DNA from: Bacteroidota bacterium
GTDB lineage: Bacteria > Bacteroidota > Bacteroidia > JABDFU01
Reading direction: 5' to 3'
Assembly: GCA_013286385.1 (NCBI GenBank)
Contig: JABDFU010000002.1
Location: 20,575-84,574, forward strand
DNA: 64,000 nt
Both the position numbers and the translations under genes were made by a program. Shown piece after piece: positions 10,210 through 56,641 of the stretch (position 1 is its first letter; every line of letters begins with the position of its first letter). The notes under the pieces are model-generated. The model was not told the origin of the DNA and did not search any database. It saw only the letters and a program-made list of their open reading frames with translations.

Positions 10210-10216
10210 TTCAGTA

Positions 10217-38623: not shown

Positions 38624-40561
38624 TTAGGGCGTGCTTAGTTTTTTAAGCAGAAGCCCTTGTTGTGCAACCAAGGCTTCCAGTTCTTCAATTTTCTTTTGTT
38701 GTTCCTTCACTGCTTCAACCAATACGGGTGTGATCTGGGCATAGTCAATTCTAAGAAGGTTATCTCCGGGAGCCTCTTGAACGGCTTCTGGCATGACTTT
38801 CTGAACTTCCTGTGCTATGAATCCGAAATACGTGCGGTCATCCATTGTCATTCCTTCTCTGGCGGTTTTTTCAAGATCCCAGTTGTACGTCACGGCCTGC
38901 AGGGACTTTACTTTATCCAGTGCATTTGAAACGCAGGTAATATTTTTTTTGTACCGTCCGTCCGATGCGCTCCAGACTCCACCTGTGCAGGATGTATTTC
39001 CGTTAACCGCCAAAAGATAGCCCGGACTGGTGGTTCCGATACCCACATTGCCCGAAGATTTTAACACAGATACTGCTTCTATCACTCCGTTGGTGGTGGA
39101 ATTGGGAACAAATATACCTGCACGTTCAGAAGAAAGACCATCGTCCGTTGCTCCGAATTGCACATAGGTGCCTGCTGCCATTCCTGACCAGGTTCTGATT
39201 TGCAGTCCGGTCGCATTTCCACCACCTCCGGCTCCTCCCTGAATCAGCATACTTGAAGCAGTAGTTGTCGAGTTGTACAATTCAAGCATGTTGGATGGGC
39301 TTGTTGTTCCAATACCTACATTCCCGTTACTGGCAATCGTCATTCTGGCTGCTACATAGCCCGTGCTGCCGGCCGGAGTTGTGTAAAAGCCCATGTATGT
39401 TTCAGCATTGGTCGAACTCCAGTTGCTTCCGGCCGTCATTTGAATGGATCCTCCGAATTGGTTAGCTGCGGTCCCGTAACCCCCACCGTCTAATATCAAA
39501 AGGTTATCTCCGGCCTGAGTTGCCGATGGGGAAGCCTTGCTTCCTCTTATTGCATAACCTGTAATTTCTCCCCCATCGTTACCGCCGGAACCTGAATAGG
39601 CGCGTAAGGAAATTTGCGCGTTCAAAGAGCCTGCATTCTGATCAGCCTCCATAATCATCATGGCATAATTTGGAGCGGCCAGACCGGTCCAATTCGAATT
39701 GTAAATATGGAGGTCGGCCTGGGGTTCCGTAATTCCAATCCCGACATTACCACCGAAATAGTTGATCTGATTTCCTGCACAGTAAACCCCATAGGCGGTT
39801 GTTGCATTTAACGAAAGATCGGTAACATAGATTCCGTAGGCATTCAGCAAATGGCCTGATCCCGTAGCGGTCACGTAATCTCCGTAGGCAGTTGACAGGG
39901 AGCCTTCGAACAGGGTATAGGTTCCGTACCCGGTTGAACTCGCCGTGGAGTTACCGGTACCAATTGTATTGGATGTACCGTATATAGTGCTGGCTGTCTG
40001 ATGCGACCAGGAAACATCCAATGAGTTTAAGGTACCATACAACGAGTTGACCGTACTGAAGGTGCAACAGCTGTTAACCTGATTGTAAACGCCCGCTACC
40101 GTTCCGATTGTGTTATTCGATGCGAATGCAATAACGTTGTGCAGGCCATCGTAAAAACCGGTATTGTCATTGGCCGGAGGTACGGTACCAATATTATTCT
40201 GAATTACATCATTGATGCCGCCGGTAACGGTTGGACCCGGGAAAAATCCAATATTCACTGCCGGTGTCCCGTTTGCAGGGGAGTAGGATATGGTCAAAGG
40301 GGAAGTTATTCCGCCCGGAGCACCTACTCCTATGCCAACGAACCCCTGAACGGTTAAGCCATTTGCCGGGGCAGCATATACGCCTGCATAGCCAGTCCCT
40401 ACAGTTATACCGCCATTCACATCAAGCGTACTTTTAGGTACGAACTGAGCTGGCCCGATTCCGACAGATTGAGAAAAGGCTTCCCCGGCTCCGTCCCAAA
40501 ATAGCGGAAGGAAGAGCAATGCGGCAAGAAATTTTGGAACGGAGGGTTTTTCGGAGTACAT
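38624..40561 (-). CDS. tail-fibre domain protein with C-terminal peptidase S74 intramolecular chaperone (self-cleaving) domain, signal peptide, 645 aa
   Basis: C-terminal 113 aa: SDGRYKKNITCVSNALDKVKSLQAVTYNWD...YFGFIAQEVQKVMPEAV...coiled coil. Repeated GNVGIGTTSP.. motifs. N-terminus LFLPLFWDGAGEAFSQSVGIG. Confidence 0.8.
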   Translation of the reverse strand: MYSEKPSVPKFLAALLFLPLFWDGAGEAFSQSVGIGPAQFVPKSTLDVNGGITVGTGYAGVYAAPANGLTVQGFVGIGVGAPGGITSPLTISYSPANGTPAVNIGFFPGPTVTGGINDVIQNNIGTVPPANDNTGFYDGLHNVIAFASNNTIGTVAGVYNQVNSCCTFSTVNSLYGTLNSLDVSWSHQTASTIYGTSNTIGTGNSTASSTGYGTYTLFEGSLSTAYGDYVTATGSGHLLNAYGIYVTDLSLNATTAYGVYCAGNQINYFGGNVGIGITEPQADLHIYNSNWTGLAAPNYAMMIMEADQNAGSLNAQISLRAYSGSGGNDGGEITGYAIRGSKASPSATQAGDNLLILDGGGYGTAANQFGGSIQMTAGSNWSSTNAETYMGFYTTPAGSTGYVAARMTIASNGNVGIGTTSPSNMLELYNSTTTASSMLIQGGAGGGGNATGLQIRTWSGMAAGTYVQFGATDDGLSSERAGIFVPNSTTNGVIEAVSVLKSSGNVGIGTTSPGYLLAVNGNTSCTGGVWSASDGRYKKNITCVSNALDKVKSLQAVTYNWDLEKTAREGMTMDDRTYFGFIAQEVQKVMPEAVQEAPGDNLLRIDYAQITPVLVEAVKEQQKKIEELEALVAQQGLLLKKLSTP

Positions 40562-40625
40562 GTGACTAGGTTTTAGTTCGCGGTTCGTTTTACGTAAAGC
40601 GGAAGCCTAAAGTTTGTAAAAAAAT

Positions 40626-40656
40626 AAGCACGGGTTGCAGAGCCCGTGCTTTTTTA
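40626..40656. terminator. rho-independent terminator hairpin with U-tracts on both strands
   Basis: Stem aagcacggg / cccgtgctt with loop ttgcagag. TTTTT follows on the plus strand, and a run of 7 A precedes it (T7 on the minus strand). It lies 35 nt downstream of the S8 peptidase stop. Confidence 0.6.
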
Positions 40657-40690
40657 AAGATAAAATCTCAGGTAGAGGAAAATCCGGTGT

Positions 40691-43096
40691 TTAACGTTCC
40701 AGTACGATTTTTCTGATTTCGGTTCCCTTGCCTGTAGTGCTTTGTATGTAATAAACACCGGTAGCTTCTCTGCTAAGATTTACGACTACCGATCCTCCGT
40801 GCAGATCTGAGTTGCCCGCTTTTGCCACCAAAGCTCCCCATTCATTGTAAACCGAAATGCTGACCGGTTCATTGAACCCCGGAGGATACAGGATATTAAC
40901 TTCTCCGGTTGAAGGATTGGGGAAAACAGTCAGTGTAGTTTTGCCGGCTGACCCGGCAATTCCGGTAGCGCTGCCATGGCACAGAATCGGAGCGATGGCC
41001 TCTGCCGTTCGGAAGTTGGTCCACACTGCAGAGTCGTTTGCCCAAAGCCCCTGATACCTCATCCAGGCCCTATTGGGTGTTACTTCTCCGCTTATGGTAC
41101 AGGCAATAGCGATCGTATCCGCCGGTGAATTTGTCGTGCTGAACTGAATGCCCAGGTAATAGGAACCTGTAACGTTTACCGGGGAGTCGAAGTTAATGAA
41201 ATTCCACTCATCTACTTTCAGGGTATTGATCTTAACCTCTTTATTGGCGAGGGTATTGGAGGGATATCCGTTTGCATTGTCCCAGATGGATACCTGTACA
41301 ACGTCTCCCGAACTGCCGGCAAAGTTCTTTACAAATAAAACCCCGGCTCCTGTGATATCGTAGCCGGAAGGAGGAGGGCTTGAAAAATAATCGCAATTCG
41401 CTTCGTCTCCTAAGTTATTTGAGCCTAAAACATATCCCCAGTTACCCTTTCCTTCCGAATTCAGGTAAATGGTCAAGGTATCTTTGTTGACAAAGTTGGC
41501 GATGGTATCGCACTCATTTGTCAAACTGCCTGCCACTGTAATGTAACAGGTCTTCGTAACAGGACTGGAGCCTATGTTGTTTGTGGCTGTCAAACTGACT
41601 GCATAGCATCCTTTTGTGTTGTATACAATTCCTGAAGGATTCTGTACAGCCGAACTTGTAGTGGCCGCTCCGGTAAAAGTCCAGGACCAGGAAGTCGGGT
41701 TATTGGTCGACAAGTCGGTGAAGTTTATGCTTTGCCCCGTTTTTATTGTTACCTGGTTGGCTACAAAGTTTGTCACGGGAGCAGAACCCGCAATTCCTGC
41801 CACACACTGAAGCGCGGCCTGGGCATTTATTAATCCGGCTCCGACATTTCCTGAGTTTGTTCCGATTGAACTGATATTGGTACAACTGCTGGTCAGGCAA
41901 CTGGTCAGCTGAGCAGGTGTCAGCGTGGGGTTCAGTGAAAGCATTAATCCTGCAAGACCCGCAACCATAGGGGTTGCCATAGAAGTTCCCGAAAGGCAAT
42001 CGTAGTAATTTACATTATTGCCATTGACACATCCCGCTGTGCCCGTGTGATTGGTAATGGTACTGAGGATGTTCTCTCCGGGTGCACAAAGCGTTATCCA
42101 GCTTCCGTAATCGGAAAAGCCTGAAAGTGCATTCGTTGCTCCGGTTGAGGCTACAGCTATAACATGGGTATAAGCTGCAGGATAGATCATGGTCGTATTT
42201 CCGTTATTTCCTGCTGCCGCAACGATAAGGACGCCCTTGTTATAGGCATAATTAACCACGTCCTGCTCGTATGCTGAAGAGTTCGATCCGCCCCAGGAGC
42301 AACTGATGACTCTCGCACCCGAATCTACGGCGTAAATGATCGCATCCCAACCCACATCGATGGCCTCTGTGTTGGACGCGGTGTCGTATGTAGCTTTAAT
42401 AGCCATTATCGTGATGCCAAATCCGATTGACGAAACCCCGGTCGAATTGTTTGTACCTGCTCCGATCAGTCCGGCCGTATGGGTTCCGTGGTCCCAGTTT
42501 GAATTTTGAAAAGGGGGGTTGGGATTGTTGTCGTTGTCGGCCACATCCCAGGATTTGGAAGATATCTGGGCAGAGAGGTCAGGGTGGCTAATCAGAATTG
42601 CACCGTCCACATCTGCAACAACTACAGATGGGTTTCCTTTACTTATATCCCAGGCTGCTGCTGCATTGATTTGAGGCAAATGCCACTGATACGTGTAATA
42701 GGGATCATTTGGAGTTAAAAACTGGTAACGCAGGTATTTCTTTTCAGCATATTTTATAAATGAGTTTCTGCCCAGCTCTGCAATCAGCGAATCGATCATG
42801 CTGAAATTGTTGAACTGAATCTCATATACATTGCTCAAATGAGCGTCGGAAATTTTCGGATGCTTGCGGATAACGTTTGTAATCGCATATTTTCCGCTGA
42901 TCTGAGAAAGGAAAGGGGTGCCGTTGATGTTTACCACACCATTTACATCAGCGGGAATCTGCACAATTGCGTTTTCCAGAATCTGAAAAACCACCCTTCC
43001 GTTCTGGTAATTTTGAATTTCCGTTAAAGCTTTTGCTGAATCAGTGGTCAGCAGCACTAAAGAAGCGATAAATCCCACCAGTAATTTTCTTTTCAT
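40691..43096 (-). CDS. S8 (subtilisin) family serine peptidase with PKD-like module and type A T9SS sorting domain, 801 aa
   Basis: HGTHTAGLIGAG (His), GTSMATPMVAGLAGL (Ser), AAAGNNGN (oxyanion Asn), VVVADVDGAI (Asp region). PKD-like NFTDLSTNNPTSWSWTF. C-terminus VFPNPSTGEVNILY...YYIQSTTGKGTEIRKIVLER. Confidence 0.9.
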   Translation of the reverse strand: MKRKLLVGFIASLVLLTTDSAKALTEIQNYQNGRVVFQILENAIVQIPADVNGVVNINGTPFLSQISGKYAITNVIRKHPKISDAHLSNVYEIQFNNFSMIDSLIAELGRNSFIKYAEKKYLRYQFLTPNDPYYTYQWHLPQINAAAAWDISKGNPSVVVADVDGAILISHPDLSAQISSKSWDVADNDNNPNPPFQNSNWDHGTHTAGLIGAGTNNSTGVSSIGFGITIMAIKATYDTASNTEAIDVGWDAIIYAVDSGARVISCSWGGSNSSAYEQDVVNYAYNKGVLIVAAAGNNGNTTMIYPAAYTHVIAVASTGATNALSGFSDYGSWITLCAPGENILSTITNHTGTAGCVNGNNVNYYDCLSGTSMATPMVAGLAGLMLSLNPTLTPAQLTSCLTSSCTNISSIGTNSGNVGAGLINAQAALQCVAGIAGSAPVTNFVANQVTIKTGQSINFTDLSTNNPTSWSWTFTGAATTSSAVQNPSGIVYNTKGCYAVSLTATNNIGSSPVTKTCYITVAGSLTNECDTIANFVNKDTLTIYLNSEGKGNWGYVLGSNNLGDEANCDYFSSPPPSGYDITGAGVLFVKNFAGSSGDVVQVSIWDNANGYPSNTLANKEVKINTLKVDEWNFINFDSPVNVTGSYYLGIQFSTTNSPADTIAIACTISGEVTPNRAWMRYQGLWANDSAVWTNFRTAEAIAPILCHGSATGIAGSAGKTTLTVFPNPSTGEVNILYPPGFNEPVSISVYNEWGALVAKAGNSDLHGGSVVVNLSREATGVYYIQSTTGKGTEIRKIVLER

Positions 43097-43204: not shown

Positions 43205-44419
43205 TCAATCTTCCTGAACGATTTTTTGAACCGAAGGGACCCCGTTGATCAGGCTGTGAATGAAGTAAACACCTCTGTTTGACACGGTCAGGGTATACAG
43301 GTAATTTCCGGCGCTCAGGTTTTTGTTCTCGACAGCTTGCACAAGCTGTCCAAGAGCGTTGTAAACAGAAATCTGCACCAGGGCATTTTCCTGCAATTTC
43401 AGGCTCAGGTTGCTGCTGGTGTTGAACGGATTCGGGTAAACGCTTACGGCAGCCGGATTCGAATGTTCTTCAATTCCGGTACTGATATTGGTAATGTAAA
43501 CTCCGCTTCCGTTTGAACCCGCATAGAGGTCAGAGCCGATTGCAGCCAGCGAAGTGATGTTTGCGGTGGTCATTCCTCCGTTATAAGCAGACCAGCTGGT
43601 CCCGTTATTGGCGGACATATAAACTCCGGAGCCATCCGTGGCAGCATAGATGTTGCCACCTGAGGAAAGCATAACGTACACATAACCTCCTCCTCCGATT
43701 CCTGTATTGATTGCAGACCAGGAAACTCCGTTGTTCGATGACATGAATATTCCGCTGCCCCAGGTAACGGCATACAGATAGTTTCCGGACGCATAGAGTT
43801 GTGTTAAATTATTTCCGCCGGTATTCAGGGAATCTGATCCGCTTCCGCTTGCAACGGTCCAGTTGCTGCCATTGTTGGTTGACATAAAAACCAGACCATT
43901 TTCAGTTCCGGCATATAGGTTTTTTCCGGATACCGCAAGGGACACTACATCAAGGCTGGTCAAACCGGTGTTCACCGTCTTCCAGGAAGTTCCGTTGTTG
44001 GTAGACATAAAAACCCCGCTGAAGGTTGCTGCAAACAGATCGCTGCCGATCAGCGCAAGCGAATAAACCCCGGTATTTGTAAGGCCGCTATTTTCAGCTG
44101 TCCAGGTGGTTCCGTAATTGCTGGAGAGAAAAACCCCTCCGCTTTGTGTTGCGGCAAAGAGCAAGGTATCTGATACGGCAAGGGCCAGAACGGAAGTATA
44201 GGCTGTAAGGCCGCTGTTGATCGCAGTCCAGACCGTTCCGCTGTTTGTGGTTACAAACAGGCCTGAACCTGCGTCGGTTGCTGCATAAACATTACTTTTA
44301 ACGGAAGTAATGGCGGTAACAATACCAGTTGAAACGCTTCCGGTTGTTTTGGTCCATTGGGCCGTTGCAAACTGAGTGGCAACTAAAAGGCTGAGGGAAA
44401 TAAGTACGATTCTTTTCAT
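43205..44419 (-). CDS. 6-7-bladed BNR/Ycf48-like propeller protein with type A T9SS sorting domain, 404 aa
   Basis: Six clear units of about 42 aa, GvF.StNnGtsW..vNtGL...v.sLa..g..lyA, plus a short partial seventh. C-terminus VYPNPFNTSSNLSL...GVYFIHSLINGVPSVQKIVQED. Confidence 0.75.
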   Translation of the reverse strand: MKRIVLISLSLLVATQFATAQWTKTTGSVSTGIVTAITSVKSNVYAATDAGSGLFVTTNSGTVWTAINSGLTAYTSVLALAVSDTLLFAATQSGGVFLSSNYGTTWTAENSGLTNTGVYSLALIGSDLFAATFSGVFMSTNNGTSWKTVNTGLTSLDVVSLAVSGKNLYAGTENGLVFMSTNNGSNWTVASGSGSDSLNTGGNNLTQLYASGNYLYAVTWGSGIFMSSNNGVSWSAINTGIGGGGYVYVMLSSGGNIYAATDGSGVYMSANNGTSWSAYNGGMTTANITSLAAIGSDLYAGSNGSGVYITNISTGIEEHSNPAAVSVYPNPFNTSSNLSLKLQENALVQISVYNALGQLVQAVENKNLSAGNYLYTLTVSNRGVYFIHSLINGVPSVQKIVQED

Positions 44420-44512: not shown

Positions 44513-47500
44513 CTACTTAAGCAGGGTGACATCCCCGATATAGGTGTGATAGATGTCAAAAACGTCGGTTAACTCAACCTGCCAGACATAAACATCCTGC
44601 TGGGCGACAGAACTTCCGTAATTGGCTCTTCCGTCCCAGCCTATGCTCAGGCTATTGGTTTCAAAAATCAGATTTCCCCAACGGTCGAAAATGTCCATTT
44701 TGTATTTCTTGATATAGGTACCGACCCCGTTAAAAGTGTCGTTGAGGCCATCTCCGTTAGGGGTAAAGGCATTGGGAATATAAAAGGTGAACTGCGGGTA
44801 TACCACCAGGCAGTTTTCTGCGGAATCCTTGCATCCGTAAAGGTTCGTTACCAGCTGCCAGACGCAGTACGTCCCGGTGTCCTTATAGGTGTGCCGGGGG
44901 TTTTGAACATAATTCATTGAATCAATTTCGGAACCATCACCGAAATTCCATTTCCAGGTTACTGCACCTGAAGATTTGTCCTGAAAATTTACAAAAGGTG
45001 CCAGTACGCTGACCGAATTCGGGTTGCAGACAAATCCTGCAACCGGTAATCCCTCTATAGTGATGTAATCGGGTTTAGTGGCAACGTTCGTGCAGCCGTG
45101 CGAAGTCGTAACTCTAAGGGATACCGTGTATTTGCCCACCCTATCATAGCAATGTGAGGGATTTTGCTGGGTGGAAGTTTTACCGTCACCGAAGGTCCAG
45201 AGCCAGGATTGAATTGCAGAGCCGTCAGGAGAGGTGCTTTTATCCGTAAAGCTGACGCAAACATTCTGACAGGCACCCGTGTCGTTTGCCGTAAAATTCA
45301 CAATGGGATTTGAATAGACCGACACTGTAATCAGGGCTGAATCGGGAGGAGTGGTACATCCGTCGTTTACAACTACCGTATACGTTGTGGTTACTTCAGG
45401 CGCTACGGTGATCGTGTCCCCTGTATAGTTAAAGGGTTCCCAGGTAAAGGAATAGCTGCCCGAACCGCCGCTGGCGTATACAGACAGTTTAGCCGGGGAG
45501 CCCGGACAAATGCCCGCAGGAGAGGCCTGTGCCTGAATATCCAAAGGAGGCTTGACGTGGACGGTTATCGTAACCGGGTTTGAGGGACATCCGTTTTCAT
45601 CCGTTGCAATAACGGTGTAGGTAGTGGTGAGGGTCGGGTTGGGGCTGAAATTGGCTCCGGTAAACAATCCGTTATTCCAGGTAAAGGTATAAGCCGGAGT
45701 GCCTCCGGTAGCAGCTGCATTGAGGTGGGCGACCTGGCCTATGCAGATATTTGTGTCTCCTGAGGTAATCACAATCAGAACAGAGGGGGAGCTGATTTTA
45801 ACCCGGGCTGTATCCTTGCAGCCAAACTGATCGCTGACGGTGACGGTATAGGTGCCTGTACATAAATCGCTGATAGCAGAAGTGTCCTGCACCGGTACGG
45901 TATTCCAGCTATAGGAATAAGGGCCGACGCCTCCGCTGGCTGTGGCGGAGGCAAGGCCGTTGCAGTTTCCGAAGCAGGTTACATTGCTGAAGCTGGTAAT
46001 GGCGGCTTTTGGTCCGCCGGCATTGGCCACGCTAAGTTTCAGGGAATCCCGGCATCCGTTGTTATCTGTTACCAAGACAGCGTAGTTGCCCGGATAAGCG
46101 CTGTCAATTAAACTTGCTGTATCATTGCCTGGTTTCCAAAGGTAGCTGTAGGGAGGAGTGGCTCCGCTTGCCGTTACGGTGAGTACCCCGTCGTTCTGAT
46201 TGCAATGCGCCGTGACACTGGTTCCGCTTAGCGAAAGTGCAGTGGGTTCCGTAATAACGATGCTGGTTGTATTCGTACAGCCGTTTGCGTCTGTCACCTG
46301 TACCGAGTAGGTGCCGATGCAAAGACTATCAATACTTAAATTGTGGCTGCCGGTCGACCACTCTACCGTGTATGGTTTTATACCGGCAGAAGGGATGATT
46401 ACCGCTTGTCCGTTACAGGATTTGTAACATCCAACCGGAAAACCTGCTGAGGCAATTGCTACCTGTGTGGCCTGGCTTACAATTGCAGAATCCTGGATGC
46501 TGCAGTTTTTTGAATCGGTTATAGTCACAGTGTAAACTCCGGAAGTAAGGTTCGGGATTAAATTGGCTGAGCTTCCGGTATTCCAGGAGTAACTATAGCC
46601 GCCGTTTCCGCCGTAAGCGCTGATCTGAATGCTCCCCGTGCCTTTGCTGAAACAAAGCACATTCACAATTTTCATACTGTCCGTAATGGCCGGTGGCTGT
46701 GTGATGACTACCGTATCTGCAAGGCTGCAACCCGAAAGGTCTGTAATGGTCAGGGTATAGGATCCGGCCAGAAGATAGTTGACAGAGCCGCCTGTAAGGT
46801 TTCCCGGCATCCAGGAATAGGCATATCCTCCTGTTCCTCCTCCCGCTATGGCGTTGGCCGATCCCGATGAATCCTGATAGCAGGTCAGGTTTGAAACGGC
46901 TATGGTTGAAGTCAGCGGAGATGGCTGGGTCAGTGTTGCGCTGGCACTGTCCAGGCAACCATTGGCGTCTGTGACATAGACCGAGTAGCTCCCTGCTGCC
47001 AGTTTCACAGCGGCAGAATCTGATCCGGCAATTGTCTTCCAGCTGTAGCTGTAAAGCGGCGTTCCTCCGCTTGCCTGAGCAGTTGCTGATCCTGTTTTGG
47101 CTCCGGCGCAGCTGACATTGACCTGCGAAATACTTGTATTCAGTTGTGTAGGTTGAACCAGCACAATGGTATCAGAAAATGTACAACCCAGGGAGTCGAA
47201 CACATTCAAGGTGTACGAACCGGCCGGCTGGCCTGTCATACTATCGGTGAAATTACTCATGGGCTGCCAGGAATAAATATAAGGGGCAGTGGCCCCTGAA
47301 ACTGTAACATAGGCGCTTCCGTTTTTGTCCGAAAAACACCGGGGATTATTTTGCAAGACTGTAGCAGCGAAGGCGGCAGGCTGAGTCAGCACAGCTGAAC
47401 TGTCAAATGTGCAGCCATTGTTATCGGTAATGGTCAGGCTGTAGGTTCCTGCCGGCAGGTTGGCATTGGTTGAATCGTTCACTGAAACCGGTGACCAGGA

Positions 47501-50500
47501 ATACGTGTACGGCAGCGTCCCGCCCGCAGGAGTTACGCTGATACTGCCGTTGCTTCCCTTGTTGCAAAACACATTGTTGACTACATGAAGTTGCCCCTGC
47601 AGCAGCAGTGGTTCTGTTATTGTTACCGTATCCAGAGCAGTACAGGAGTTGGCATCGGTCAGTGTAAAATAATACTGTCCTTTGGCAAGATTTGAAATTG
47701 AAGAAACTGTTGAGCCTGTGGACCAGCTGTAGGTATAGGCCGGAGTTCCTCCCCCTGCAAAGGCGCTTGCCGTTCCTGAGGCTCCTCCAAAGCAGGAAAC
47801 ATTCTGCCGGTTTACCAAAATCGAAAACGGACCCGGTTGAGTTACAGTTGCAGAAGCGGTAGCTGTACAGGACTGTCCGTCCGTTACGGTAATGGTGTAG
47901 GTGCCTGCCGCAACCAACGAAGTGGTGATGCCGGTTCCTCCCGAAGGTGACCAGGAATAGGCATACGGAAGAGATCCTGCATTGGGGACTGCTGTAACCA
48001 TTCCATTGCTTCCGCCCGGACAACTCACCGGACTGGCCGTGGCAACAACATTCGGGGGCAAGGCAAAATTATCCAGCGTCAGGGTACGGGTATCTGTACA
48101 ACTGAATGCATCTGTAACCGTAACCGTATAGGTACCCGGCGAAAGATTGTTGGCAACAGAATCGGTACTCACCGAAGGACTCCAGGCGTAGGCATAAGGT
48201 CTTACTCCTCCGAAAATGCTGATTGATACACTGCCGTTGGGAAGCAGGCATTTCGGATTCTGAATGACAGGGGGCATTATAAAAGGGGTGGAAGATGGTG
48301 TAATCGAAAAAATCTGAGCGGTGTCGCAGCCATTGGTATCGGTAACTTCGACAATATAGGTACCCGGACTCAGGTTGCTTTCTACCTGTCCGGTGCCTGC
48401 GAAACTCCAGGTATAAAAATACCCGGGAGTACCGCCTCCGGGTATAGCCGTTACCACATAGTTATTGCTTCCGCTACAGGCAACTTTTGTTACCGACAGG
48501 TTGACCGTAACCTTTTCGGGTTGTCCAACCTGAACCGAATCAACCAAAATACATCCGCTGATATGAATATCCGTGATGGTAACGGTATACATACCGGGAA
48601 CAAGATTCACCTGACTCTGATTGGTATTGTTTCCGGGAGCCCAGTTGTACGTGAATACCCCCGAGCCCCCGTTTGCAGTAACACTGGCCTGTCCGTTTAC
48701 GTCCCCGTAACAGGTGACGGGGACCGAAGACATCGCGGCTGTGATACCGTTGCTTAAAGTGATGGAAGCTGAATCCAGCGTACTGCATCCGTTTGCGTCT
48801 GTGATGTAGACGTACTCCTTACCGGGTAACAGGCCTTTTATGGTATCGTTGGCTGAATAAACCGGAGACCAGGAATAGGTATACGATCCGGTACCTCCGC
48901 TGGCAGTTGCCCAGGCTTCCCCGTTCGAACTGCCGCAACTGGCCAGTTTAACCCCGGTGGTTCCGCTGATTTTGGAGGGCTGAGAAACCGATCCCAGGGC
49001 TGAAATGCTGCAACCTTTGCTATCTGTGACAGTCACCGCATAAGCACCGGCAGCCACATGAGCGAGGGTATCTGATGTCCCGGATCCCGGTATCCAGGAA
49101 TACGAGTACGGTTCGTTTCCTCCGACGGGGCTTATCCAGATAGCGCCGCTGCTATCTCCGAAGCAGGTAAGGCTCCTGGTCGAAATCCCTGCGCTCAGCG
49201 CCAGGGGTTGGGTAAGAACAGCAGAATCCATGGACGAACAAAAGGTATTGACGGCATCCGTCACTTTTACGTAATAAGTTCCCGGAGAAAGTCCGCTGAT
49301 GGTGCTTCCGGTGCTGCCTCCGGTCCAGGAATACCGGTAACTTCCGGAGCCTCCGCTGGCGCTTGCAGAAATGCTGCCGTTCGACAGGCCGTTGCAACTG
49401 ATATTCTGCGGGGTCAATGTAATGACAATGCCATTGGGCTCGGTAATTTTTGCCGAATCTTTCGTCGTACAGCCGTTGTTATCTGTGACGGTTACAAAAT
49501 AGGTCCCTTTATAAAGTGAACTGATGGCGGCTGAACTTGATCCCGTACTCCACAGATAGGTATATGGGGCAACGGCACCGCTAACACTGACCCCGGCAGT
49601 TCCGAAATCTGATCCGCATGCGGTATTGGTATGATTCATCGTGAGATTCATCCCGGAAGGCTGAGTAAGGCTAATCGATCGTGTTGCAGAACAACCGTTT
49701 GCATCTGTTGCGTTGACGGTATATGTTCCCGGACTTAGATTTTTCAGCGTATCGGCAAGAACAAGTCCGGGGTTCCAGGTGAACTGGTAGGCTCCGGTTC
49801 CTCCGCTGCCTGAAATACTTACCTGACCATTGCCGTAACCGAAGCAACTGATATCCGATGAGTCCGCTTTCAAAACAAAAGCGGCCGGTTGTGTGATCGG
49901 GGCCGCACTTACAGAGGTGCAGCCATTTGCATCGGTTACCGTAACCGAATACGTGGCAGGGCTTAGATCTGAAAGTGAATTTCCGGTTGAAGCATTCGAC
50001 CAGAGGTAGGTATATGGGTTGGTTCCGCCCGAAACAACAAGGCCGGCTGTTCCGTTTGAATTACCGAAACAATTGATGTTGACTGCATTTACGGTAGAAA
50101 CCAAAAGCCCGGGCTGAGTGATCCGGATGGTATCCGATACGAAACAGGCTGCGTTGGCGGCATCGGTTACTGTAACGCTGTAAAGCGAGGGTGATAATCC
50201 ATTGATTGCTGCAGAGCTATAGCCGCCAGGGCTCCAGCTGTAAACATAGGTACCCGAACCTCCGGTTGCCACCACGGTCGCCGTACCATTGGCAGCCGAA
50301 TTGCACAGTACATTTGTCCGGCTGATGCTGTTTAGTGCAACGGGATTGGGTTCACTAATTTGTACGGAGTCAACAGCGCTGCAGCCTTTTTTATCGGTAA
50401 CGGTGACCGTGTAGGTTCCTTTGGAGAGATTTACAAGACTGTCAGCAGTGCCTGTAACCGGAGCCCATTGATAGGTATAGGAACCGTTACTGCCTGAAGC

Positions 50501-53500
50501 GTGCACGTAAGCTTTTCCTGTAGCCAGCCCACAGTCTGTATTGACAAGGCTTGTGCCAAGCGAAAGAAGAGTTGGGTTGATCACATGTGTAGAGTCCGAA
50601 ACGGTGCATCCATTCGCATCTGTAACGGTGAGGGTATAGGTTCCCGCGGACAGGTTGCCTGCTGTTGAAGTTGCACCGCCACCAGGCATCCAGGAATAGG
50701 TGTAGGCACCGGCTCCTCCGCTTACGCTTGCAAAGGCCGAGCCGTCCGTACCTCCGTTGCAACTCGGGCTTACAGAGTCTGCGCGTATCAAAATCTGCGT
50801 GGGCAGATTCAGCAGTACCGAGTCCTTCAGGCTGCAATTGTTGCTATCGCTGACCAGTACATAATACTGGCCCTCGTTTAACCCACTGATGGCACTGCTT
50901 CCCTGACCTGTAAAAGCTGATGATCCCGAACTTTTTTCTGACCAGGTATAGGAATAAGGCAGGCTGCCTCCACTGACCGAAATCTGTGCAGCGCCGTTGG
51001 CTGCATTGAAACAACTCAGTGCGGTTCCTGTTATCGTTGCTGCCAAAGCAGCAGGCTGGCTTACACTGGCAGTGGCGGTATTGACACAGCCATTCTGGTC
51101 ATGAACAGTCACGGTATAGGTTCCGGGTGCCAGTCCCGACAAGGTATCCTGGGCAGCTCCTGAGAAACTCCAGGAATAGGAGTAAGGTGCGGCAGCGCCT
51201 GAAGCATTCACCCAGACTTTTGCGTTTGAAAAATTAAAACAGCTCACATTAACGGAGTCGGTTTTCAGACTTACAACCGGATAAGCCAGATTGATCTGTC
51301 CCAGCGTATCGCAGCCCGAAGTTGTATTGGTAACCTTAACCTGGTAGAGCCCCGGGGCCAATCCTGTAATGGTGTCGCTTGTACTTCCGGTAGGTGTCCA
51401 TACGACGCTGAAAGGAGGAGGTCCTCCGGTAATCGTCACATAAGCCTCCCCGTTATCCAGGTAACAGGTCGGATTCTTTCCGTTCACAGCAATCCTGAAA
51501 GGCGGAGGTTCGGTAATGGTAATGGATTTGGTAATGGTGCAGCCATTGGCATCCGTTACAGTCAGCGTATACGTTCCGGGACCCAGTCCCCCTATTGTAT
51601 CGCCGGGACCACCGGCCGGAGCCCAGTTATACGTATAAGCCGGAGTGCCTCCTCCTGCCCTGGCTCCAATACCTCCGTTGTAAGCTCCAATGCAGCTGAC
51701 ATTGACTGAATCCAGGGTAAGGGTTAACGGAGGTGGTTGCAGGACAGTTACGGACTGGGTCGTCGTGCAACCGTTCGCATCCGAAACACTGACTACATAC
51801 GTACCTGCCGGGATGCCTGTTTCATTCGATCCGTTCCCTCCTCCGGGTGTCCAGTTGTAGGTGTAGGCAGGTGTTCCGCCGTTTACATGGGCGGTCACCG
51901 AACCGGTGTTCTGGCCATTACAGCCCAGATTGGTATGCGTGGGTGCAGCTGTCAGCGGATTGGGCTGGGTCACATTGATGACTACAGAAGCTGTGCAGCC
52001 GGGGTTTACGGCGTCGGAAACAGTTACGGTATACGTGCCGGCAGCCAATCCGGAGAGGGATGAAGAGACTCCTCCTGCGGGAGCCCAGTTGTAATTGTAG
52101 CTTCCCGTTCCTCCAGTGGCAACAACACTTGCTGTGCCGTTCCCGGAGCCGTTACAGCTAAGGTCAGTTTTCGATCCGGTCAGACTGAGCGGGTCTGCCA
52201 CTGCGATCGTAACGGTCTGAAAAACTGTACAGCCGTTGGCATCGGTTACAGTTACTACATAGGAGCCTGGTGCCAGTCCCGATTCAGATGAGGTGACTCC
52301 TCCGCTGCTCCAGTTGTAGGTATAAGGCAGCGTTCCTCCGGCGGGGGTAACCGTAGAGCTTCCGTTGGAAACTCCGCAGGAGGCGTTCGTTGCAGATTGT
52401 GTAAAACTCAGCTGCGCGGGCTGTGTAATTGAAACCGACAGGGTAGAGGAGCACCCGTTTGCATCCTTAATTAAAACCGTATAGGTATTTGCTGCAAGTC
52501 CGCTGGCTGTTGCAGCAGCTCCGCCGCCGGGTGACCAGGAATAGGTAAGTGTGCCGGTTCCACCTGATGCGCTGACCGAAGCCGATCCGTTTGTCAATCC
52601 GAAGCAGCTGACATTTTTCTGTGCGTTCACGGAGACATTGAGTGCCGAGCCCTGCGTAATGTTGACTGCGGATGAACCCGTGCACCCATTCGCATCTGTT
52701 ACAGTCAGTGTGTAGCCTCCAACCCCAAGTCCGGAAAGGGAAGGGGAGGTCGTGCCGGTGCTCCAGCTATAGGTGTAAGCCGGAGTTCCTCCAAGGGAAG
52801 CAGATGAAGCCGTTCCGTCATTGCTTCCGTTACAGGTAATGTTTACGGCAGTTACATTGGGGTTAAGGGGCGGTGGTTGCGTAATCGTAATTATTTCAGA
52901 GCTTGAACAGGCTGCATTCGCTGCGTCACTGACCGTCACCGAATACGTTCCGGCAGACAGCCCTGAGGCCAGTGGCCCGGCGCCTCCTGAAGGGGCCCAG
53001 GTATAGTTGTAGGCTCCCGAACCTCCGCTTGCTGCAATGCTGATGGATCCGCTGGAAGCCCCGTTGCAATTGATATTGGCGGCGACCGGGGTAACGGATA
53101 AGGGATCTGAAACCGCAATCACCACAGTCGCTGTCTGCGAACAGAGGTTGGCGTCGTTCACGACAACGGTATACGTTCCGGGAGCGAGGCTGCTAACTGC
53201 AGCCGTAGTTGCGGAAGTTGTCCAGGCATAGACGTACGGAGAAAGGCCTCCGCCGGGGGTGACCGTTGCTGTTCCGTTATCAGAACCGCAACTTGCATTG
53301 GTGCCGGTCATGCTCAGACTTAAATTAGGAGGCTGGGTCAGGCTGACAGTTGAAGTCGCTGTGCAACCTCCGGCATCTGTTACTGAAACGGTATAGGTAT
53401 TGGCTCCCAATCCGCCCGCTGTTGCAGCGTTCCCACCCGAAGGGGACCAGTTATAGGTATACGGCCCTGTTCCACCGCCGGCCGTAACGACGGCCTGGCC

Positions 53501-56500
53501 GCTTGTCTGACCGAAACACTTGATGTTGGTTCCTGAAGTGTTTGCTGTCACAAGTGATCCGGGGTTTACCGTTGCGGCTGCTGTTTTTGTGCAGCCGTTT
53601 GCATCTGTGACTGTTACCGTGTATCCTCCGGGACTCAGACCAGAAATCGAACTGCTGCTGCCCGAATTCGACCACTGATAGGTATAGGGAGAAGTTCCTC
53701 CTGTTGAATTCACCGTCACGCTTCCATTGTCCGAACCCGAGCAGGTATTGCCAACGGTTGTCAGAGGGGCTGTCAGGACAGCGGGCTGTGTTATCACAGC
53801 CGTTGCGGCAGCTGAACAGGAAGGTGTACTATCGTCAATAACGGTAACCGTATATGTTCCCGGTGCCAATCCCGAAGCGACCGATGTTGTTCCGCCCGAA
53901 GGAGCCCAGTTGAAGCTGTACCCTCCGCTGCCTCCTGTAATATTCAGGACAACTTTGCCGTTTGCCGCTCCGTTACAGGAATTATCTGTTACAGTTGGTG
54001 TAACCGACAAGGGGTTCGAAAGTATTACGGTAAGCGCATCTGTCATCGTACAGCCATCCGCATCGGTAACAGTAACCGAAAATGTGCCCGGATTTAGCCC
54101 GCCCGAAACAGCGCTGGTGGCTGAATTCGACCAGAGGTAGGTGTAGGGTAACGTTCCGCCGGCGGGTGCCACGCTTACCGAACCGTTGGCCAAACCGCAG
54201 CCGGCATTAGCAGATGAGGGATTCAGCACCATAGCAGGAGGCTGGGTAATTGTGGAACTCGAAGCAGAGGTGCATCCGTTCACATCCGTAACCGTAACCG
54301 AATAGGTGCCCGGCGCTAAATTGCTTTCCGTAGCACCTGCGCCTCCACCCGGAGACCAGTTGTATGAATAGGCCGGAGTTCCGGCTGTTGCAGTAACGGC
54401 GACTGCTCCGTTATCGGCCCCAAAGCAACTGACGTTAGAAGGCGTGCTGGCAATGGCAACGGGAGGATTGTACAGATTTGTTTCTGCGACGGCCGTGGTA
54501 CTCGTACATCCTTTGCTGTCAGTGACGGTAACGGTATAGGTTCCTGCAGCAAGATTGCTTGCCGTAGCTGTTGTTCCTCCAGAGGGGGCCCAGTCATAGG
54601 TCAGCGGGGCGGTCCCGCCTACAGTCGTAATCGAAATTTTTCCATTCGAAAGTTCACAGGTCTCTTTGGTTATAACCGGTGTGTTTATGAAAATCGGAGG
54701 AGCTTCAGAAATGGTGACATTGGCATAATACTCACAGCCGTTCGCGTCCGTAAGTTTTATCGTAAATATTCCCGGGCCCAGGCCTGTTGCCGTTGCAGTT
54801 GTCTGTGCGGGCACTGTGTTCCAGGAATAAGTATAAGCTCCGGTTCCTCCCGAAGGAACCAAGGTTGCCGTTCCGTCATTTGTTCCGCTGCAACTACTGT
54901 TGGTAAAGCTTGTTGTTCCTCCAAGCTGGGTTGGCTGGGTAATTGCGATTACCGTTGATTCGCTGCAGCCACTGTTATCGGTTACGGTCAGGCTGTAATT
55001 GCCCGCGGTCAGGCCAAATATTGTATCATTGATGCTCAGACTCGGTTTCCAGGCATATACATACGGTGGTTTGCCTCCGTCAGGTGTTACCCATGCTTTT
55101 CCGTTATTCCCTCCGAAACAAGTAACGTTGTTGCCGGCAGTGCCCTTTATCACGGGCGGGGGCTGGGTAATGGTGATAGCCGAACTGGCTGTACAACCCC
55201 TGGCATCGGTAACGGTTACCGAATACGTGCCTGCAGCCAACGAACTGATACCCGGTCCGGTCTGTCCACCCGACCAGAGGTAGGTATAGGCCGTTGTTCC
55301 TCCATTGGCACTGAGTGAAGCTGTGCCGTTAGGGACAGCATTGCAGTTTAAATTTGTTCCGGCTACAGAAACCGTCAGCAGAGGAGGTTGCGTAATGTTT
55401 ACGCTTACAGTTCTTGTGCAACCATTGGCATCGCTTACTGTTGCCGTATACGATCCGGCAGGCAGACCGCTTGCATTGGCACTGTTGCCTCCGACGGGTG
55501 TCCAGGAATAGGTATACGCTCCTGCGCCACCTCCCGCTGTAAGACTCGCTGTGCCTGTAGAAGTTCCAAAACAGGTAACATTTGCAGATGTTGCAGAAAC
55601 AGTAAGAAGCGGAGGTTGGGTAATCTGAACTGAACTGCTGGCTGTACAGCCTTCTGCATCTGTAACCGTAACGGTATAATTTCCGGCCCCGAGACCGCCC
55701 GGGTTAGCTATTGTCTGGGTCGTACCATTCCAGCTGTAGGTATAAGGGTTTGTTCCGCCTGATGTGTTTGTGCTTATGCTGCCGGTGGCGTTACCGTTGC
55801 AGAGCACATTGCCGGCAGTGGCTGAAATGCCCAGAACAGGAGGTTGGGTAATGACTGCTGAGGTTGTACCTGTGCAGCCTTTTGAATCGGTAACGGTAAG
55901 CGAATACGTCCCCGGGCCAATTCCTGTCAGGTTTGTATCCGTGCCCAGATTGCTCCAGCCGTAAGTGTACGGGCCTGTGCCGCCACTCACTGTACCCGAA
56001 ACGCTGCCATTCGAAAGCCCGAAGCAGCTGACATTTGCAGCCGTATTAGCAACGGTCAGTGCAGCATCAGCGACTATCGTTACAAAGGCTGTTTTTGTAC
56101 AGCCGTTCTGGTCTGTAACCTCCACTATATAAGCTCCGGCTTCCAGGCCTGTGGCCGTTTGTCCGGCAGAACCGCTGGTCCAGGAATAGGTGTAATTTCC
56201 GGTTCCCCCGGAGGGGTTGGCTGTAGCCGTTCCGTTAGCGCTGCCGGCGCAGGTTTCGGTTTGAGTTACCGAAACACCTATTGCAAGAGGTTGAGTGACC
56301 GAAACAGTAGCCGTGGCTGTGCAGCCCCCGCTATTGTCCATAACTGTTACCGTGTAGGTACCGGCGCTCAGTCCAGAAGAGGCCGAATCGAGCTCTGTAC
56401 CTGAATTCCAGCTGTAACTGTAGTTTCCGCTACCTCCTGAAACCAGAACCACAGTGTTTCCGTCAGCGCCCCCATTGCAGGAAACGGGGTTGGAGGAGGT

Positions 56501-56641
56501 TGTTAGATTAAGTGTACAAACAGGATACAGGGTTGAAATGAAGGCCGATGCTGAAGCAGATATAAATAAAGAAGCCCAGACCAACAGAGCGGCAGATCTG
56601 GCGTATTTCGAAAAAGCGCTTTGTTTAAAGGTAAGGTTCAC
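44513..56641 (-). CDS. giant cell-surface adhesin, 4042 aa: signal peptide, roughly four dozen SprB-type repeats, Ig-like and 2 PKD-like modules, type B T9SS sorting domain
   Basis: Uninterrupted 12.1-kb frame. GTG start, with signal-like KYARSAALLVWASLFISASASA. Repeat unit C.G..nG...v...GGt.pYtYsW.p.g.....l..L.aGtYtvtVtDanGC. C-terminus FTPNGDGLNDTF...IFDRWGNLIF...GWDG. Confidence 0.9.
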   Translation of the reverse strand: MNLTFKQSAFSKYARSAALLVWASLFISASASAFISTLYPVCTLNLTTSSNPVSCNGGADGNTVVLVSGGSGNYSYSWNSGTELDSASSGLSAGTYTVTVMDNSGGCTATATVSVTQPLAIGVSVTQTETCAGSANGTATANPSGGTGNYTYSWTSGSAGQTATGLEAGAYIVEVTDQNGCTKTAFVTIVADAALTVANTAANVSCFGLSNGSVSGTVSGGTGPYTYGWSNLGTDTNLTGIGPGTYSLTVTDSKGCTGTTSAVITQPPVLGISATAGNVLCNGNATGSISTNTSGGTNPYTYSWNGTTQTIANPGGLGAGNYTVTVTDAEGCTASSSVQITQPPLLTVSATSANVTCFGTSTGTASLTAGGGAGAYTYSWTPVGGNSANASGLPAGSYTATVSDANGCTRTVSVNITQPPLLTVSVAGTNLNCNAVPNGTASLSANGGTTAYTYLWSGGQTGPGISSLAAGTYSVTVTDARGCTASSAITITQPPPVIKGTAGNNVTCFGGNNGKAWVTPDGGKPPYVYAWKPSLSINDTIFGLTAGNYSLTVTDNSGCSESTVIAITQPTQLGGTTSFTNSSCSGTNDGTATLVPSGGTGAYTYSWNTVPAQTTATATGLGPGIFTIKLTDANGCEYYANVTISEAPPIFINTPVITKETCELSNGKISITTVGGTAPLTYDWAPSGGTTATASNLAAGTYTVTVTDSKGCTSTTAVAETNLYNPPVAIASTPSNVSCFGADNGAVAVTATAGTPAYSYNWSPGGGAGATESNLAPGTYSVTVTDVNGCTSASSSTITQPPAMVLNPSSANAGCGLANGSVSVAPAGGTLPYTYLWSNSATSAVSGGLNPGTFSVTVTDADGCTMTDALTVILSNPLSVTPTVTDNSCNGAANGKVVLNITGGSGGYSFNWAPSGGTTSVASGLAPGTYTVTVIDDSTPSCSAAATAVITQPAVLTAPLTTVGNTCSGSDNGSVTVNSTGGTSPYTYQWSNSGSSSSISGLSPGGYTVTVTDANGCTKTAAATVNPGSLVTANTSGTNIKCFGQTSGQAVVTAGGGTGPYTYNWSPSGGNAATAGGLGANTYTVSVTDAGGCTATSTVSLTQPPNLSLSMTGTNASCGSDNGTATVTPGGGLSPYVYAWTTSATTAAVSSLAPGTYTVVVNDANLCSQTATVVIAVSDPLSVTPVAANINCNGASSGSISIAASGGSGAYNYTWAPSGGAGPLASGLSAGTYSVTVSDAANAACSSSEIITITQPPPLNPNVTAVNITCNGSNDGTASSASLGGTPAYTYSWSTGTTSPSLSGLGVGGYTLTVTDANGCTGSSAVNITQGSALNVSVNAQKNVSCFGLTNGSASVSASGGTGTLTYSWSPGGGAAATASGLAANTYTVLIKDANGCSSTLSVSITQPAQLSFTQSATNASCGVSNGSSTVTPAGGTLPYTYNWSSGGVTSSESGLAPGSYVVTVTDANGCTVFQTVTIAVADPLSLTGSKTDLSCNGSGNGTASVVATGGTGSYNYNWAPAGGVSSSLSGLAAGTYTVTVSDAVNPGCTASVVINVTQPNPLTAAPTHTNLGCNGQNTGSVTAHVNGGTPAYTYNWTPGGGNGSNETGIPAGTYVVSVSDANGCTTTQSVTVLQPPPLTLTLDSVNVSCIGAYNGGIGARAGGGTPAYTYNWAPAGGPGDTIGGLGPGTYTLTVTDANGCTITKSITITEPPPFRIAVNGKNPTCYLDNGEAYVTITGGPPPFSVVWTPTGSTSDTITGLAPGLYQVKVTNTTSGCDTLGQINLAYPVVSLKTDSVNVSCFNFSNAKVWVNASGAAAPYSYSWSFSGAAQDTLSGLAPGTYTVTVHDQNGCVNTATASVSQPAALAATITGTALSCFNAANGAAQISVSGGSLPYSYTWSEKSSGSSAFTGQGSSAISGLNEGQYYVLVSDSNNCSLKDSVLLNLPTQILIRADSVSPSCNGGTDGSAFASVSGGAGAYTYSWMPGGGATSTAGNLSAGTYTLTVTDANGCTVSDSTHVINPTLLSLGTSLVNTDCGLATGKAYVHASGSNGSYTYQWAPVTGTADSLVNLSKGTYTVTVTDKKGCSAVDSVQISEPNPVALNSISRTNVLCNSAANGTATVVATGGSGTYVYSWSPGGYSSAAINGLSPSLYSVTVTDAANAACFVSDTIRITQPGLLVSTVNAVNINCFGNSNGTAGLVVSGGTNPYTYLWSNASTGNSLSDLSPATYSVTVTDANGCTSVSAAPITQPAAFVLKADSSDISCFGYGNGQVSISGSGGTGAYQFTWNPGLVLADTLKNLSPGTYTVNATDANGCSATRSISLTQPSGMNLTMNHTNTACGSDFGTAGVSVSGAVAPYTYLWSTGSSSAAISSLYKGTYFVTVTDNNGCTTKDSAKITEPNGIVITLTPQNISCNGLSNGSISASASGGSGSYRYSWTGGSTGSTISGLSPGTYYVKVTDAVNTFCSSMDSAVLTQPLALSAGISTRSLTCFGDSSGAIWISPVGGNEPYSYSWIPGSGTSDTLAHVAAGAYAVTVTDSKGCSISALGSVSQPSKISGTTGVKLASCGSSNGEAWATASGGTGSYTYSWSPVYSANDTIKGLLPGKEYVYITDANGCSTLDSASITLSNGITAAMSSVPVTCYGDVNGQASVTANGGSGVFTYNWAPGNNTNQSQVNLVPGMYTVTITDIHISGCILVDSVQVGQPEKVTVNLSVTKVACSGSNNYVVTAIPGGGTPGYFYTWSFAGTGQVESNLSPGTYIVEVTDTNGCDTAQIFSITPSSTPFIMPPVIQNPKCLLPNGSVSISIFGGVRPYAYAWSPSVSTDSVANNLSPGTYTVTVTDAFSCTDTRTLTLDNFALPPNVVATASPVSCPGGSNGMVTAVPNAGSLPYAYSWSPSGGTGITTSLVAAGTYTITVTDGQSCTATASATVTQPGPFSILVNRQNVSCFGGASGTASAFAGGGTPAYTYSWSTGSTVSSISNLAKGQYYFTLTDANSCTALDTVTITEPLLLQGQLHVVNNVFCNKGSNGSISVTPAGGTLPYTYSWSPVSVNDSTNANLPAGTYSLTITDNNGCTFDSSAVLTQPAAFAATVLQNNPRCFSDKNGSAYVTVSGATAPYIYSWQPMSNFTDSMTGQPAGSYTLNVFDSLGCTFSDTIVLVQPTQLNTSISQVNVSCAGAKTGSATAQASGGTPLYSYSWKTIAGSDSAAVKLAAGSYSVYVTDANGCLDSASATLTQPSPLTSTIAVSNLTCYQDSSGSANAIAGGGTGGYAYSWMPGNLTGGSVNYLLAGSYTLTITDLSGCSLADTVVITQPPAITDSMKIVNVLCFSKGTGSIQISAYGGNGGYSYSWNTGSSANLIPNLTSGVYTVTITDSKNCSIQDSAIVSQATQVAIASAGFPVGCYKSCNGQAVIIPSAGIKPYTVEWSTGSHNLSIDSLCIGTYSVQVTDANGCTNTTSIVITEPTALSLSGTSVTAHCNQNDGVLTVTASGATPPYSYLWKPGNDTASLIDSAYPGNYAVLVTDNNGCRDSLKLSVANAGGPKAAITSFSNVTCFGNCNGLASATASGGVGPYSYSWNTVPVQDTSAISDLCTGTYTVTVSDQFGCKDTARVKISSPSVLIVITSGDTNICIGQVAHLNAAATGGTPAYTFTWNNGLFTGANFSPNPTLTTTYTVIATDENGCPSNPVTITVHVKPPLDIQAQASPAGICPGSPAKLSVYASGGSGSYSFTWEPFNYTGDTITVAPEVTTTYTVVVNDGCTTPPDSALITVSVYSNPIVNFTANDTGACQNVCVSFTDKSTSPDGSAIQSWLWTFGDGKTSTQQNPSHCYDRVGKYTVSLRVTTSHGCTNVATKPDYITIEGLPVAGFVCNPNSVSVLAPFVNFQDKSSGAVTWKWNFGDGSEIDSMNYVQNPRHTYKDTGTYCVWQLVTNLYGCKDSAENCLVVYPQFTFYIPNAFTPNGDGLNDTFNGVGTYIKKYKMDIFDRWGNLIFETNSLSIGWDGRANYGSSVAQQDVYVWQVELTDVFDIYHTYIGDVTLLK
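45800..56520 (-). repeat. tandem array of about 45-48 SprB-type coding repeats (estimated from a ~76-aa period over ~3600 aa)
   Basis: The periodic motif is visible through nearly the whole translation. The count is an estimate, not an exact tally. Confidence 0.7.

Follow-up and report, generated by a model that had tools for sequence, protein, structure and literature searches.

The gene at positions 38624..40561 (minus strand) of the stretch studied here (64,000 nucleotides of contig JABDFU010000002.1 from the Bacteroidota assembly GCA_013286385.1, hereafter the window) probably encodes a homotrimeric fibre made by the cell itself, in which a signal peptide is followed by a long shaft and by a Peptidase_S74 (S74) domain that would assist trimerisation and then cut itself off. 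The parts of this account differ in strength. That the protein is a cellular, non-phage fibre which is exported, trimerised and self-processed is very likely; that it arrives at the surface by a route linked to the type IX secretion system (T9SS) and serves as an adhesin or recognition fibre is proposed more tentatively, as a possibility that falls somewhat short of probable. The 1,938-nt frame is unbroken, with one ATG as the only choice of start, and is divided as follows (aa, amino acids; ORF, open reading frame):

38624..40561, minus strand: fibre gene, 645 aa, precursor of 66.4 kDa (ORF list; one in-frame start)
40472..40561, minus strand: Sec signal peptide, aa 1-30, with a predicted signal peptidase I (SPase I) cut AFS/Q31 following the Q-rule (hydrophobic core and conserved boundary)
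39707..40471, minus strand: N-module, aa 31-285, a clade-specific shaft module (comparison of paralogues and metagenome proteins)
39056..39706, minus strand: aa 286-502, middle extension of the shaft; a GNVGIGTTSP capping-loop unit lies at aa 413 (motif scan and alignment of relatives)
38966..39055, minus strand: aa 503-532 (GNVGIGTTSPGYLLAVNGN...WSA), the last unit of capping loop and stalk and the predicted C-terminal end of the mature fibre (alignment with the MyRF stalk of 7dc3)
38627..38965, minus strand: Peptidase_S74 intramolecular chaperone, aa 533-645, 12.7 kDa (Pfam, motif and fold model)

Pfam recognised the S74 domain (PF13884) at aa 533-594, where the score of 63.3 bits exceeds the cut-off of 22 bits (E 2.7e-17, profile positions 1-57 of 58). 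An earlier sequence-only reading of the window had described an intact self-cleaving chaperone here, starting at a Ser in the context SDGRYKKNI, comprising the C-terminal 113 aa and closing with a coiled coil, and each of these points was recovered. The codon of Ser533 lies at 38963..38965 and that of Lys538 at 38948..38950, so that the SDxxxK Ser/Lys dyad is intact (S533-D-G-R-Y-K538), and an alignment of 45 homologues shows at least 90% conservation for each of S533, D534, R536 and K538. The region from Ser533 to the C-terminus also contains LQAVTYNW and YFGFIAQEVQKVMPEAV, and a C-terminal helix of 37 residues is predicted at 607-643 with a pLDDT of about 90. The AlphaFold2 monomer model, whose mean pLDDT is 58.6, reaches 74-88 at aa 350-430 and about 90 at aa 540-645. 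When it was compared with the PDB by Foldseek, the best 29 matches were all S74 or fibre proteins, among them the MyRF ICA domain (7dc3, E 3.7e-7), Bd2133 (8ond, E 8e-7), the T5 protein (4uw8, E 1.7e-5), and further Bd2439, Bd1334, Bd3182, endoNF (3gw6) and T4 gp34. A sequence search of the PDB returned the MyRF ICA domain 7dc3 (E 2.6e-7) and the tip of the S16 long tail fibre (6f45), and the PHROGs matches were to tail-fibre families only (best 1.6e-31, over aa 370-632); a search of NCBIfam placed the protein in no family. Judging by the model, the protein carries the Peptidase_S74 fold at its C-terminus behind a beta-helical stalk, from which a cut before Ser533 would yield an acidic mature chain of 50.3 kDa and a chaperone of 12.7 kDa (computed masses). 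Autoproteolysis, trimer formation and localisation are what we infer for this protein.

The signal-like N-terminus mentioned in the same reading is also supported. Signal peptides were called by a hydrophobicity heuristic together with the AxS/Q site and the conservation of the boundary, and here the h-region LAALLFLPLF (Kyte-Doolittle 2.66) precedes A-F-S/Q at -3/-1/+1, where Gln at +1 corresponds to the Q-rule known for signal peptidase I substrates of Bacteroidetes (PMC5837995, PMC10653852). The boundary FS/QS[VI]GIG is kept in the relatives P0002, P0003, P0004 and P0009 and in a 389-aa paralogue encoded in the window, while the leaders vary. Both the fit to the Q-rule and a boundary that stays constant behind a variable leader indicate that the fibre protein is exported by Sec. 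A signal peptide followed by Gln is also found in 5 of the 7 S74 copies of this genome, and in 30 of 40 S74 ORFs from 22 related genomes, compared with a background of 22.6% obtained with the same crude heuristic (P 3e-12).

The fibre gene is chromosomal and cell-encoded, and lies neither inside nor at the border of a prophage. Pfam scans of 45 of the larger ORFs in the window returned coaBC, dapA, BamD, TrxB, peroxiredoxins and transporters together with numerous T9SS cargo genes; none matched a phage family, in agreement with the absence of phage genes noted before. The gene is 38 kb and 23 kb away from the ends of the window, neither the whole 100-kb contig (C2) nor any other contig with an S74 gene carries a tyrosine integrase, and no phage sheath, HK97 capsid or Terminase_6N was found in the genome (2.37 Mb, 66% complete), so that the prophage edge for which the sequence-only reading had left room did not appear. 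Nor was the gene found to belong to a phage, prophage, tailocin or extracellular contractile injection system (eCIS) gene cluster, again within the 66% of the genome that is available. Its GC content (0.49) lies within that of its neighbours (0.47-0.53), and its GC at third codon positions resembles that of dapA. In a comparison with 50,697 phage records, identities of 25-33% were found, limited to the shaft and S74 domain (approximately aa 220-645), and no record covered 80% or more of the protein. The earlier description of the fibre as domesticated presupposes a transfer from phage to cell, which does not follow from the data. The family is large and old in cells (S74 is present in 30 of 41 related genomes, with up to 19 per genome, and S74 fibres are also found in Bdellovibrionales and Patescibacteria) and the nearest phage proteins are only 25-33% identical.

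Between the signal peptide and the S74 domain, a motif scan placed the beginnings of the GNVGIG..P...L capping-loop units at aa 271, 413 and 504, and the capping motifs themselves were located at aa 273, 415 and 506. The N-module starts with a generic fibre repeat of about 50 aa and ends in YG.Y...NYFGGNVGIG..P...L; copies of it are present in four genes of this genome and in the metagenome proteins P0002 and P0004, and full-length matches among 1.84 billion representatives were confined to the same clade. Its ends are more widespread, the first ~50 aa recurring elsewhere as a repeat of up to 15 copies and the last ~65 aa being common to Bdellovibrionales and Patescibacteria fibres; giant proteins from Bdellovibrionales, Patescibacteria and other phyla contain up to 15-37 copies of these end units. 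The middle extension (aa 286-502) is missing from the relatives of about 400 aa (P0002-P0004). The closest relative, P0002, is 68% identical over the N-module and sits on a 1.3-kb contig, and no full-length orthologue was found in the 6 species genomes of the order, all from one genus. As the N-module, the middle extension and the S74 domain each have different nearest relatives, the protein is a mosaic. It was also observed that giant proteins of 2,000-4,800 aa, made of as many as 37 of the shaft/capping-loop units, exist in Patescibacteria (loci L018-L020, L038, L064, L081 and L087) and likewise in Bdellovibrionales (L014, L045 and L080). Several of these giants carry an S74 motif, and their hosts are episymbiotic and predatory, respectively.

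The sequence-only reading overlooked that proteins of this kind have been described, and that the gene is one of several in its genome. The mosaic adhesive trimeric (MAT) fibres of Bdellovibrio (Caulton et al. 2024, Nat Microbiol, PMC10769870) are encoded by 21 chromosomal genes, have a signal peptide and a trimeric shaft, are tipped by S74 in 13 members and by other domains in 8, and sit on the cell surface of the predator. One of them, Bd3182, cleaves itself at S782, and the S782A exchange stops the cleavage; the GNVGIG-type capping-loop motif was given by the same authors for both MAT fibres and MyRF (PMC10769870). The fibre protein is likewise chromosomal, multi-copy and mosaic, with a signal peptide, a long predicted trimeric beta-rich shaft bearing V-G-I-G/N-x-x-x-P-x-x-x-L capping loops, a C-terminal S74 domain with SDxxxK, and paralogues in the same genome that have other tips (10217..11386 in the window, and one on contig C26). 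The Foldseek matches to Bd2133, Bd2439, Bd1334 and Bd3182 are accompanied by BLASTP matches to the shaft and S74 parts of Bdellovibrionales proteins. The differences are that the conserved, beta-rich MAT N-terminal domain of about 130 aa, which in MAT fibres comes right behind the signal peptide, was not detected, the mature N-terminus being a generic shaft repeat; that the host is a T9SS-bearing Bacteroidota and not a predator; that the protein has 645 aa compared with about 1,000; and that its gene adjoins T9SS cargo genes, some relatives even having a T9SS C-terminal domain (CTD) fused behind S74. When the N-terminal 200 aa were compared by sequence with Bdellovibrionales proteins carrying a signal peptide and S74 (from metagenome-assembled genomes, MAGs, and not the HD100 set), the best E-value was 0.27, compared with 7e-58 among the comparators themselves. 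A reading of aa 31-285 as a MAT-like anchor domain was rejected, both because only its first ~50 and last ~65 aa recur, as shaft repeats, and because of this absent match to the Bdellovibrionales N-domains. By analogy, the protein appears to resemble MAT fibres in kind without being a strict member of the Bdellovibrio family.

The chaperone domains of phage proteins (endoNF, 3GW6; T5 pb1, 4UW8; S16 gp37, 6F45) share with the fibre protein the S74 fold, the Ser-Lys dyad, a triple-beta-helix stalk ahead of it and a C-terminal helical bundle. The fibre protein differs from them by its signal peptide, by the lack of a virion or phage context, and by an identity of at most 33% in the C-terminal part only. 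The best match in the PDB for the stalk and S74, in both sequence and fold, is the eukaryotic MYRF ICA domain (7DC3, Foldseek TM 0.65-0.70), which represents another non-viral use of S74. MYRF is a membrane-bound transcription factor, and its cleavage frees a DNA-binding domain, not a fibre. CTD-tagged S74 fibres of Bacteroidota belong to the same family and class, and differ in that the fibre protein ends in the S74 coiled coil without a CTD. In the literature searched, we found no functional study of S74 fibres in Bacteroidota, only the listing of a 'tail fiber domain-containing protein' of T. forsythia in an outer-membrane vesicle (OMV) proteome (PMC10682907), and no paper that brings together Peptidase_S74 and Bacteroidetes, or S74 fibres and T9SS; the text supplements of the MAT paper (PMC10769870) do not mention Bacteroidota.

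The genome contains at least 9 fibre-family genes, 7 with S74 and 2 with other tips, and all seven S74 domains keep S[DS]xxxK. One of the S74-less paralogues and its partner gene are located in the window:

10217..11386, minus strand: S74-less paralogue, 389 aa, which shares the signal-peptide boundary and the N-module but differs in its tip of about 110 aa (BLASTP E 9e-9, alignment)
3589..10224, minus strand: DUF7948-SBBP-SprB-CHU_C protein, 2211 aa, partner gene of the 389-aa paralogue (Pfam)

The two genes overlap by 8 nt, and the 389-aa protein has no Pfam family. A related metagenome locus (L009) has the same three-gene layout, with an S74-tipped fibre in place of the 389-aa gene and upstream of the same DUF7948-SprB-CHU_C gene, which amounts to a swap of the tip. 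In the window (3589-13161), the 389-aa gene faces a divergent 508-aa gene, also without a Pfam family. On contig C26 (19294-29034), a 1675-aa S74 fibre stands in tandem with a 1547-aa S74-less paralogue which shares its N-terminus. A comparable tandem is found in an isolate, Hymenobacter aquaticus (L100, SRLC01000001.1), where an S74 fibre that has a lectin domain and matches PTL_trimer (PF26696) and discoidin is next to an S74-less PTL_trimer paralogue, beside BamA and an ECF sigma factor; the fibre protein itself has no PF26696 match. The variety of the family might have arisen by swapping of modules and tips, a suggestion which shares the tentative standing of the surface role. Two further paralogues were observed. 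The one at C23:30151-31917 has the N-module and S74 in one frame with one in-frame stop (...GYSQNGGS*NVSVGYNSG...), which could reflect a pseudogene, a sequencing error or read-through. The other, of 528 aa, is found together with a CHU_C/PKD protein at C19:19426-30295 (L099), inside a Bacteroidota conjugation cluster (TraG, TrbL/VirB6-like, DUF4138, TraM and TraO-like), and may serve an integrative conjugative element as a mating-pair adhesin.

We propose the following course of events. As suggested by its sequence, the precursor would be exported by Sec and cut by SPase I before Gln31, which would then be cyclised to pyroglutamate. In the periplasm, as expected from the family, the S74 domains of three chains would associate, aided by helix 607-643, and the S74 trimer would act as a template for the intertwined shaft, which would fold starting at its C-terminal end and proceeding to its N-terminal end. 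If the protein behaves like endoNF, T5 pb1 and Bd3182, the Ser533/Lys538 dyad would then cut between Ala532 and Ser533, freeing the 12.7-kDa chaperone and leaving an acidic fibre of about 50 kDa per chain (Gln31-Ala532), the newly exposed C-terminal end of which would be the distal, ligand-binding tip. In the fourth and weakest step, the fibre would get to the surface in association with T9SS; it carries no sorting domain itself, but tag-less genes of the family, this one included, adjoin T9SS cargo and many relatives are tagged after S74. Finally, it may serve as an adhesin or recognition fibre.

The fourth step thus depends on the relation between the fibre family and T9SS. The absence of a T9SS CTD from the fibre protein, already noted in the sequence-only reading, was confirmed with Pfam (no Por_Secre_tail or CHU_C at E<=1) and with a custom hidden Markov model (HMM) of the CTD (no match at E<=10), which two paralogues on contig C16 do match. 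The genome has at least 94 T9SS cargo genes; in its 2.37 Mb, 38 CHU_C and 59 Por_Secre_tail matches are above the cut-off, which corresponds to about 5% of the called genes of this 66%-complete genome. An adjacent T9SS cargo gene on the same strand is found for 5 of the 7 tag-less fibre-family genes (5 of 6 loci), compared with 8.0% of all genes (P 2e-5 to 6e-5), a statistic resting on 6-7 paralogous loci of one 66%-complete MAG. The cargo partners are mutually unrelated (an S8 peptidase, SprB-like giants and a PKD/CHU_C protein). The three genes that precede the fibre gene on the same strand each encode a protein with a T9SS CTD. No small gene encoding a CTD alone adjoins the fibre gene, and the CTD gene nearest to it is that of the 801-aa S8 peptidase:

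40691..43096, minus strand: S8 subtilase with PKD and type-A T9SS CTD, 801 aa, upstream neighbour (Pfam; Por_Secre_tail at C2:61277-61501)
43205..44419, minus strand: BNR/sortilin-like propeller with type-A T9SS CTD (Pfam)
44513..56641, minus strand: 4042-aa SprB-repeat protein with type-B (CHU_C) T9SS CTD (Pfam: 42 SprB repeat stretches and CHU_C)
40626..40651, minus strand: terminator-like hairpin between the S8 and fibre genes, 9-bp stem with 6 GC pairs, followed by a T-run (sequence scan)

On the other side, a Reg_prop/Y_Y_Y sensor gene converges on the fibre gene, the stop codons being 13 nt apart; two such paralogous sensors, both with a SpoIIE (PP2C) output domain, are encoded in the window (23043-26204 and 35227-38610).

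Using the custom HMM, a type-A CTD was found behind S74 and the coiled coil in the two C16 paralogues (9168-10142 and 40278-41541) and in 14 of 40 relatives. In these paralogues and relatives (the latter L103-L140) the T9SS tag is located on the very portion whose self-removal is predicted. Of 6 relatives sampled with Pfam, 5 gave a Por_Secre_tail match (E 2e-8 to 2e-5), one of them scoring above the cut-off, and most of the matches cover the full profile with a score just below the gathering cut-off; the complete C16 paralogue (9168-10142) reaches 23.8 bits compared with a cut-off of 27. As far as their sequences indicate, the CTD-bearing members of the family are T9SS substrates, and it is plausible that the fibre protein, too, ends up on the far side of the outer membrane. 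Taken together, the adjacency of cargo genes and the CTD-tagged relatives suggest a T9SS-linked surface display. Of the earlier statement that the fibre is exported to the envelope, it is thus the Sec step that is supported, whereas the crossing of the outer membrane and the display are inferred from the tagged paralogues and the linkage. A narrower link, to CHU_C (type-B) genes, appeared in this genome (3 of 9, P 2.5e-3); it was dropped as weak in the relatives, where CHU_C genes are within ~5 kb of only 6 of 40 S74 loci, and the broader link to any T9SS cargo was kept. A more far-reaching version, which we consider rather unlikely, is that tag-less S74 fibres are exported and displayed by being carried along with the T9SS cargo encoded next to them (in this case the S8 peptidase or SprB-like proteins, in others CHU_C proteins) and that, with their tagged relatives, they make up a 'fold, export, self-release' system for trimeric adhesins throughout the Bacteroidota. 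If true, this would be a functional counterpart of trimeric autotransporters, by a T9SS mode not yet described.

Besides the narrow base of the adjacency statistic, the scores below the cut-off and the scarcity of CHU_C genes near the S74 loci of relatives, several observations weigh against the account proposed here. The hairpin with its T-run, 65 nt before the fibre start, parts the fibre gene from the S8 gene, and neither the Bacteroidota -7 motif TAnnTTTG nor a sigma-70-like promoter was found in the 339 nt upstream (40562-40900, minus strand), which makes co-expression of the fibre gene with its neighbours doubtful; in the region overall, terminator-like sites are no more frequent than in shuffled sequence. 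The AlphaFold2 model is that of a monomer of a presumably intertwined trimer, its pLDDT is below 50 in the N-module, and it is uninformative for aa 1-210. Lastly, no anchor domain, lipobox or T9SS CTD is recognisable in the fibre protein, and it may therefore remain periplasmic or be released.

This last point leads to the alternative that the protein is exported by Sec and processes itself but is unanchored, being periplasmic, packed into OMVs, or set free as a soluble trimer with a lectin-like or antagonistic role. The lack of any anchoring element, an N-terminus that is a generic shaft repeat and the T. forsythia protein detected in OMVs (PMC10682907) would fit such a fate, which we nevertheless consider unlikely, as the 14 of 40 relatives with their own CTD and the linkage to T9SS cargo point past the outer membrane, and MAT fibres are located at the cell surface. 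That the S74 domain trimerises without cleavage, or that the gene is silent or decaying, could be argued from the missing promoter and from the in-frame stop of the C23 paralogue; it is highly improbable given the intact frame, the conserved active-site S, D, R and K, and the high confidence with which the S74 region is modelled. Hardly any credence is left for an orphan tail fibre of a phage, tailocin or eCIS (a moron, or what is left of a prophage) that would be fitted to a particle whose genes lie elsewhere, since the PHROGs tail-fibre matches (up to 1.6e-31), the existence of Bacteroidota eCIS fibres with S74 (PMC12923769) and a genome that is only 66% complete are opposed by a Sec signal peptide ill-suited to the assembly of virions or other particles in the cytoplasm, by the absence of sheath, HK97 capsid and Terminase_6N from the genome and of an integrase from the S74 contigs, and by seven copies dispersed amid housekeeping and T9SS genes, with native composition and a phage identity of at most 33%.

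As a cell-encoded fibre, the protein belongs to a class that is already described and abundant in databases, where its members are labelled 'tail fiber domain-containing protein', and both the biology of this class in Bacteroidota and its relation to T9SS are testable. The label calls for caution, as genes annotated in this way are unsafe as prophage markers in Bacteroidota. Self-cleaving S74 fibres encoded by cells were shown to be surface adhesins in 2024, in the predator Bdellovibrio (PMC10769870), and the fibre locus with its paralogues indicates that this architecture is widespread, and continues to diversify, in a lineage of Bacteroidota that possesses T9SS. If the link to T9SS cargo is real, the locus would provide a concrete test of how a folded trimer without a sorting signal crosses the Bacteroidota outer membrane, and would also reveal the fate of a sorting signal that is borne on a self-cutting domain.

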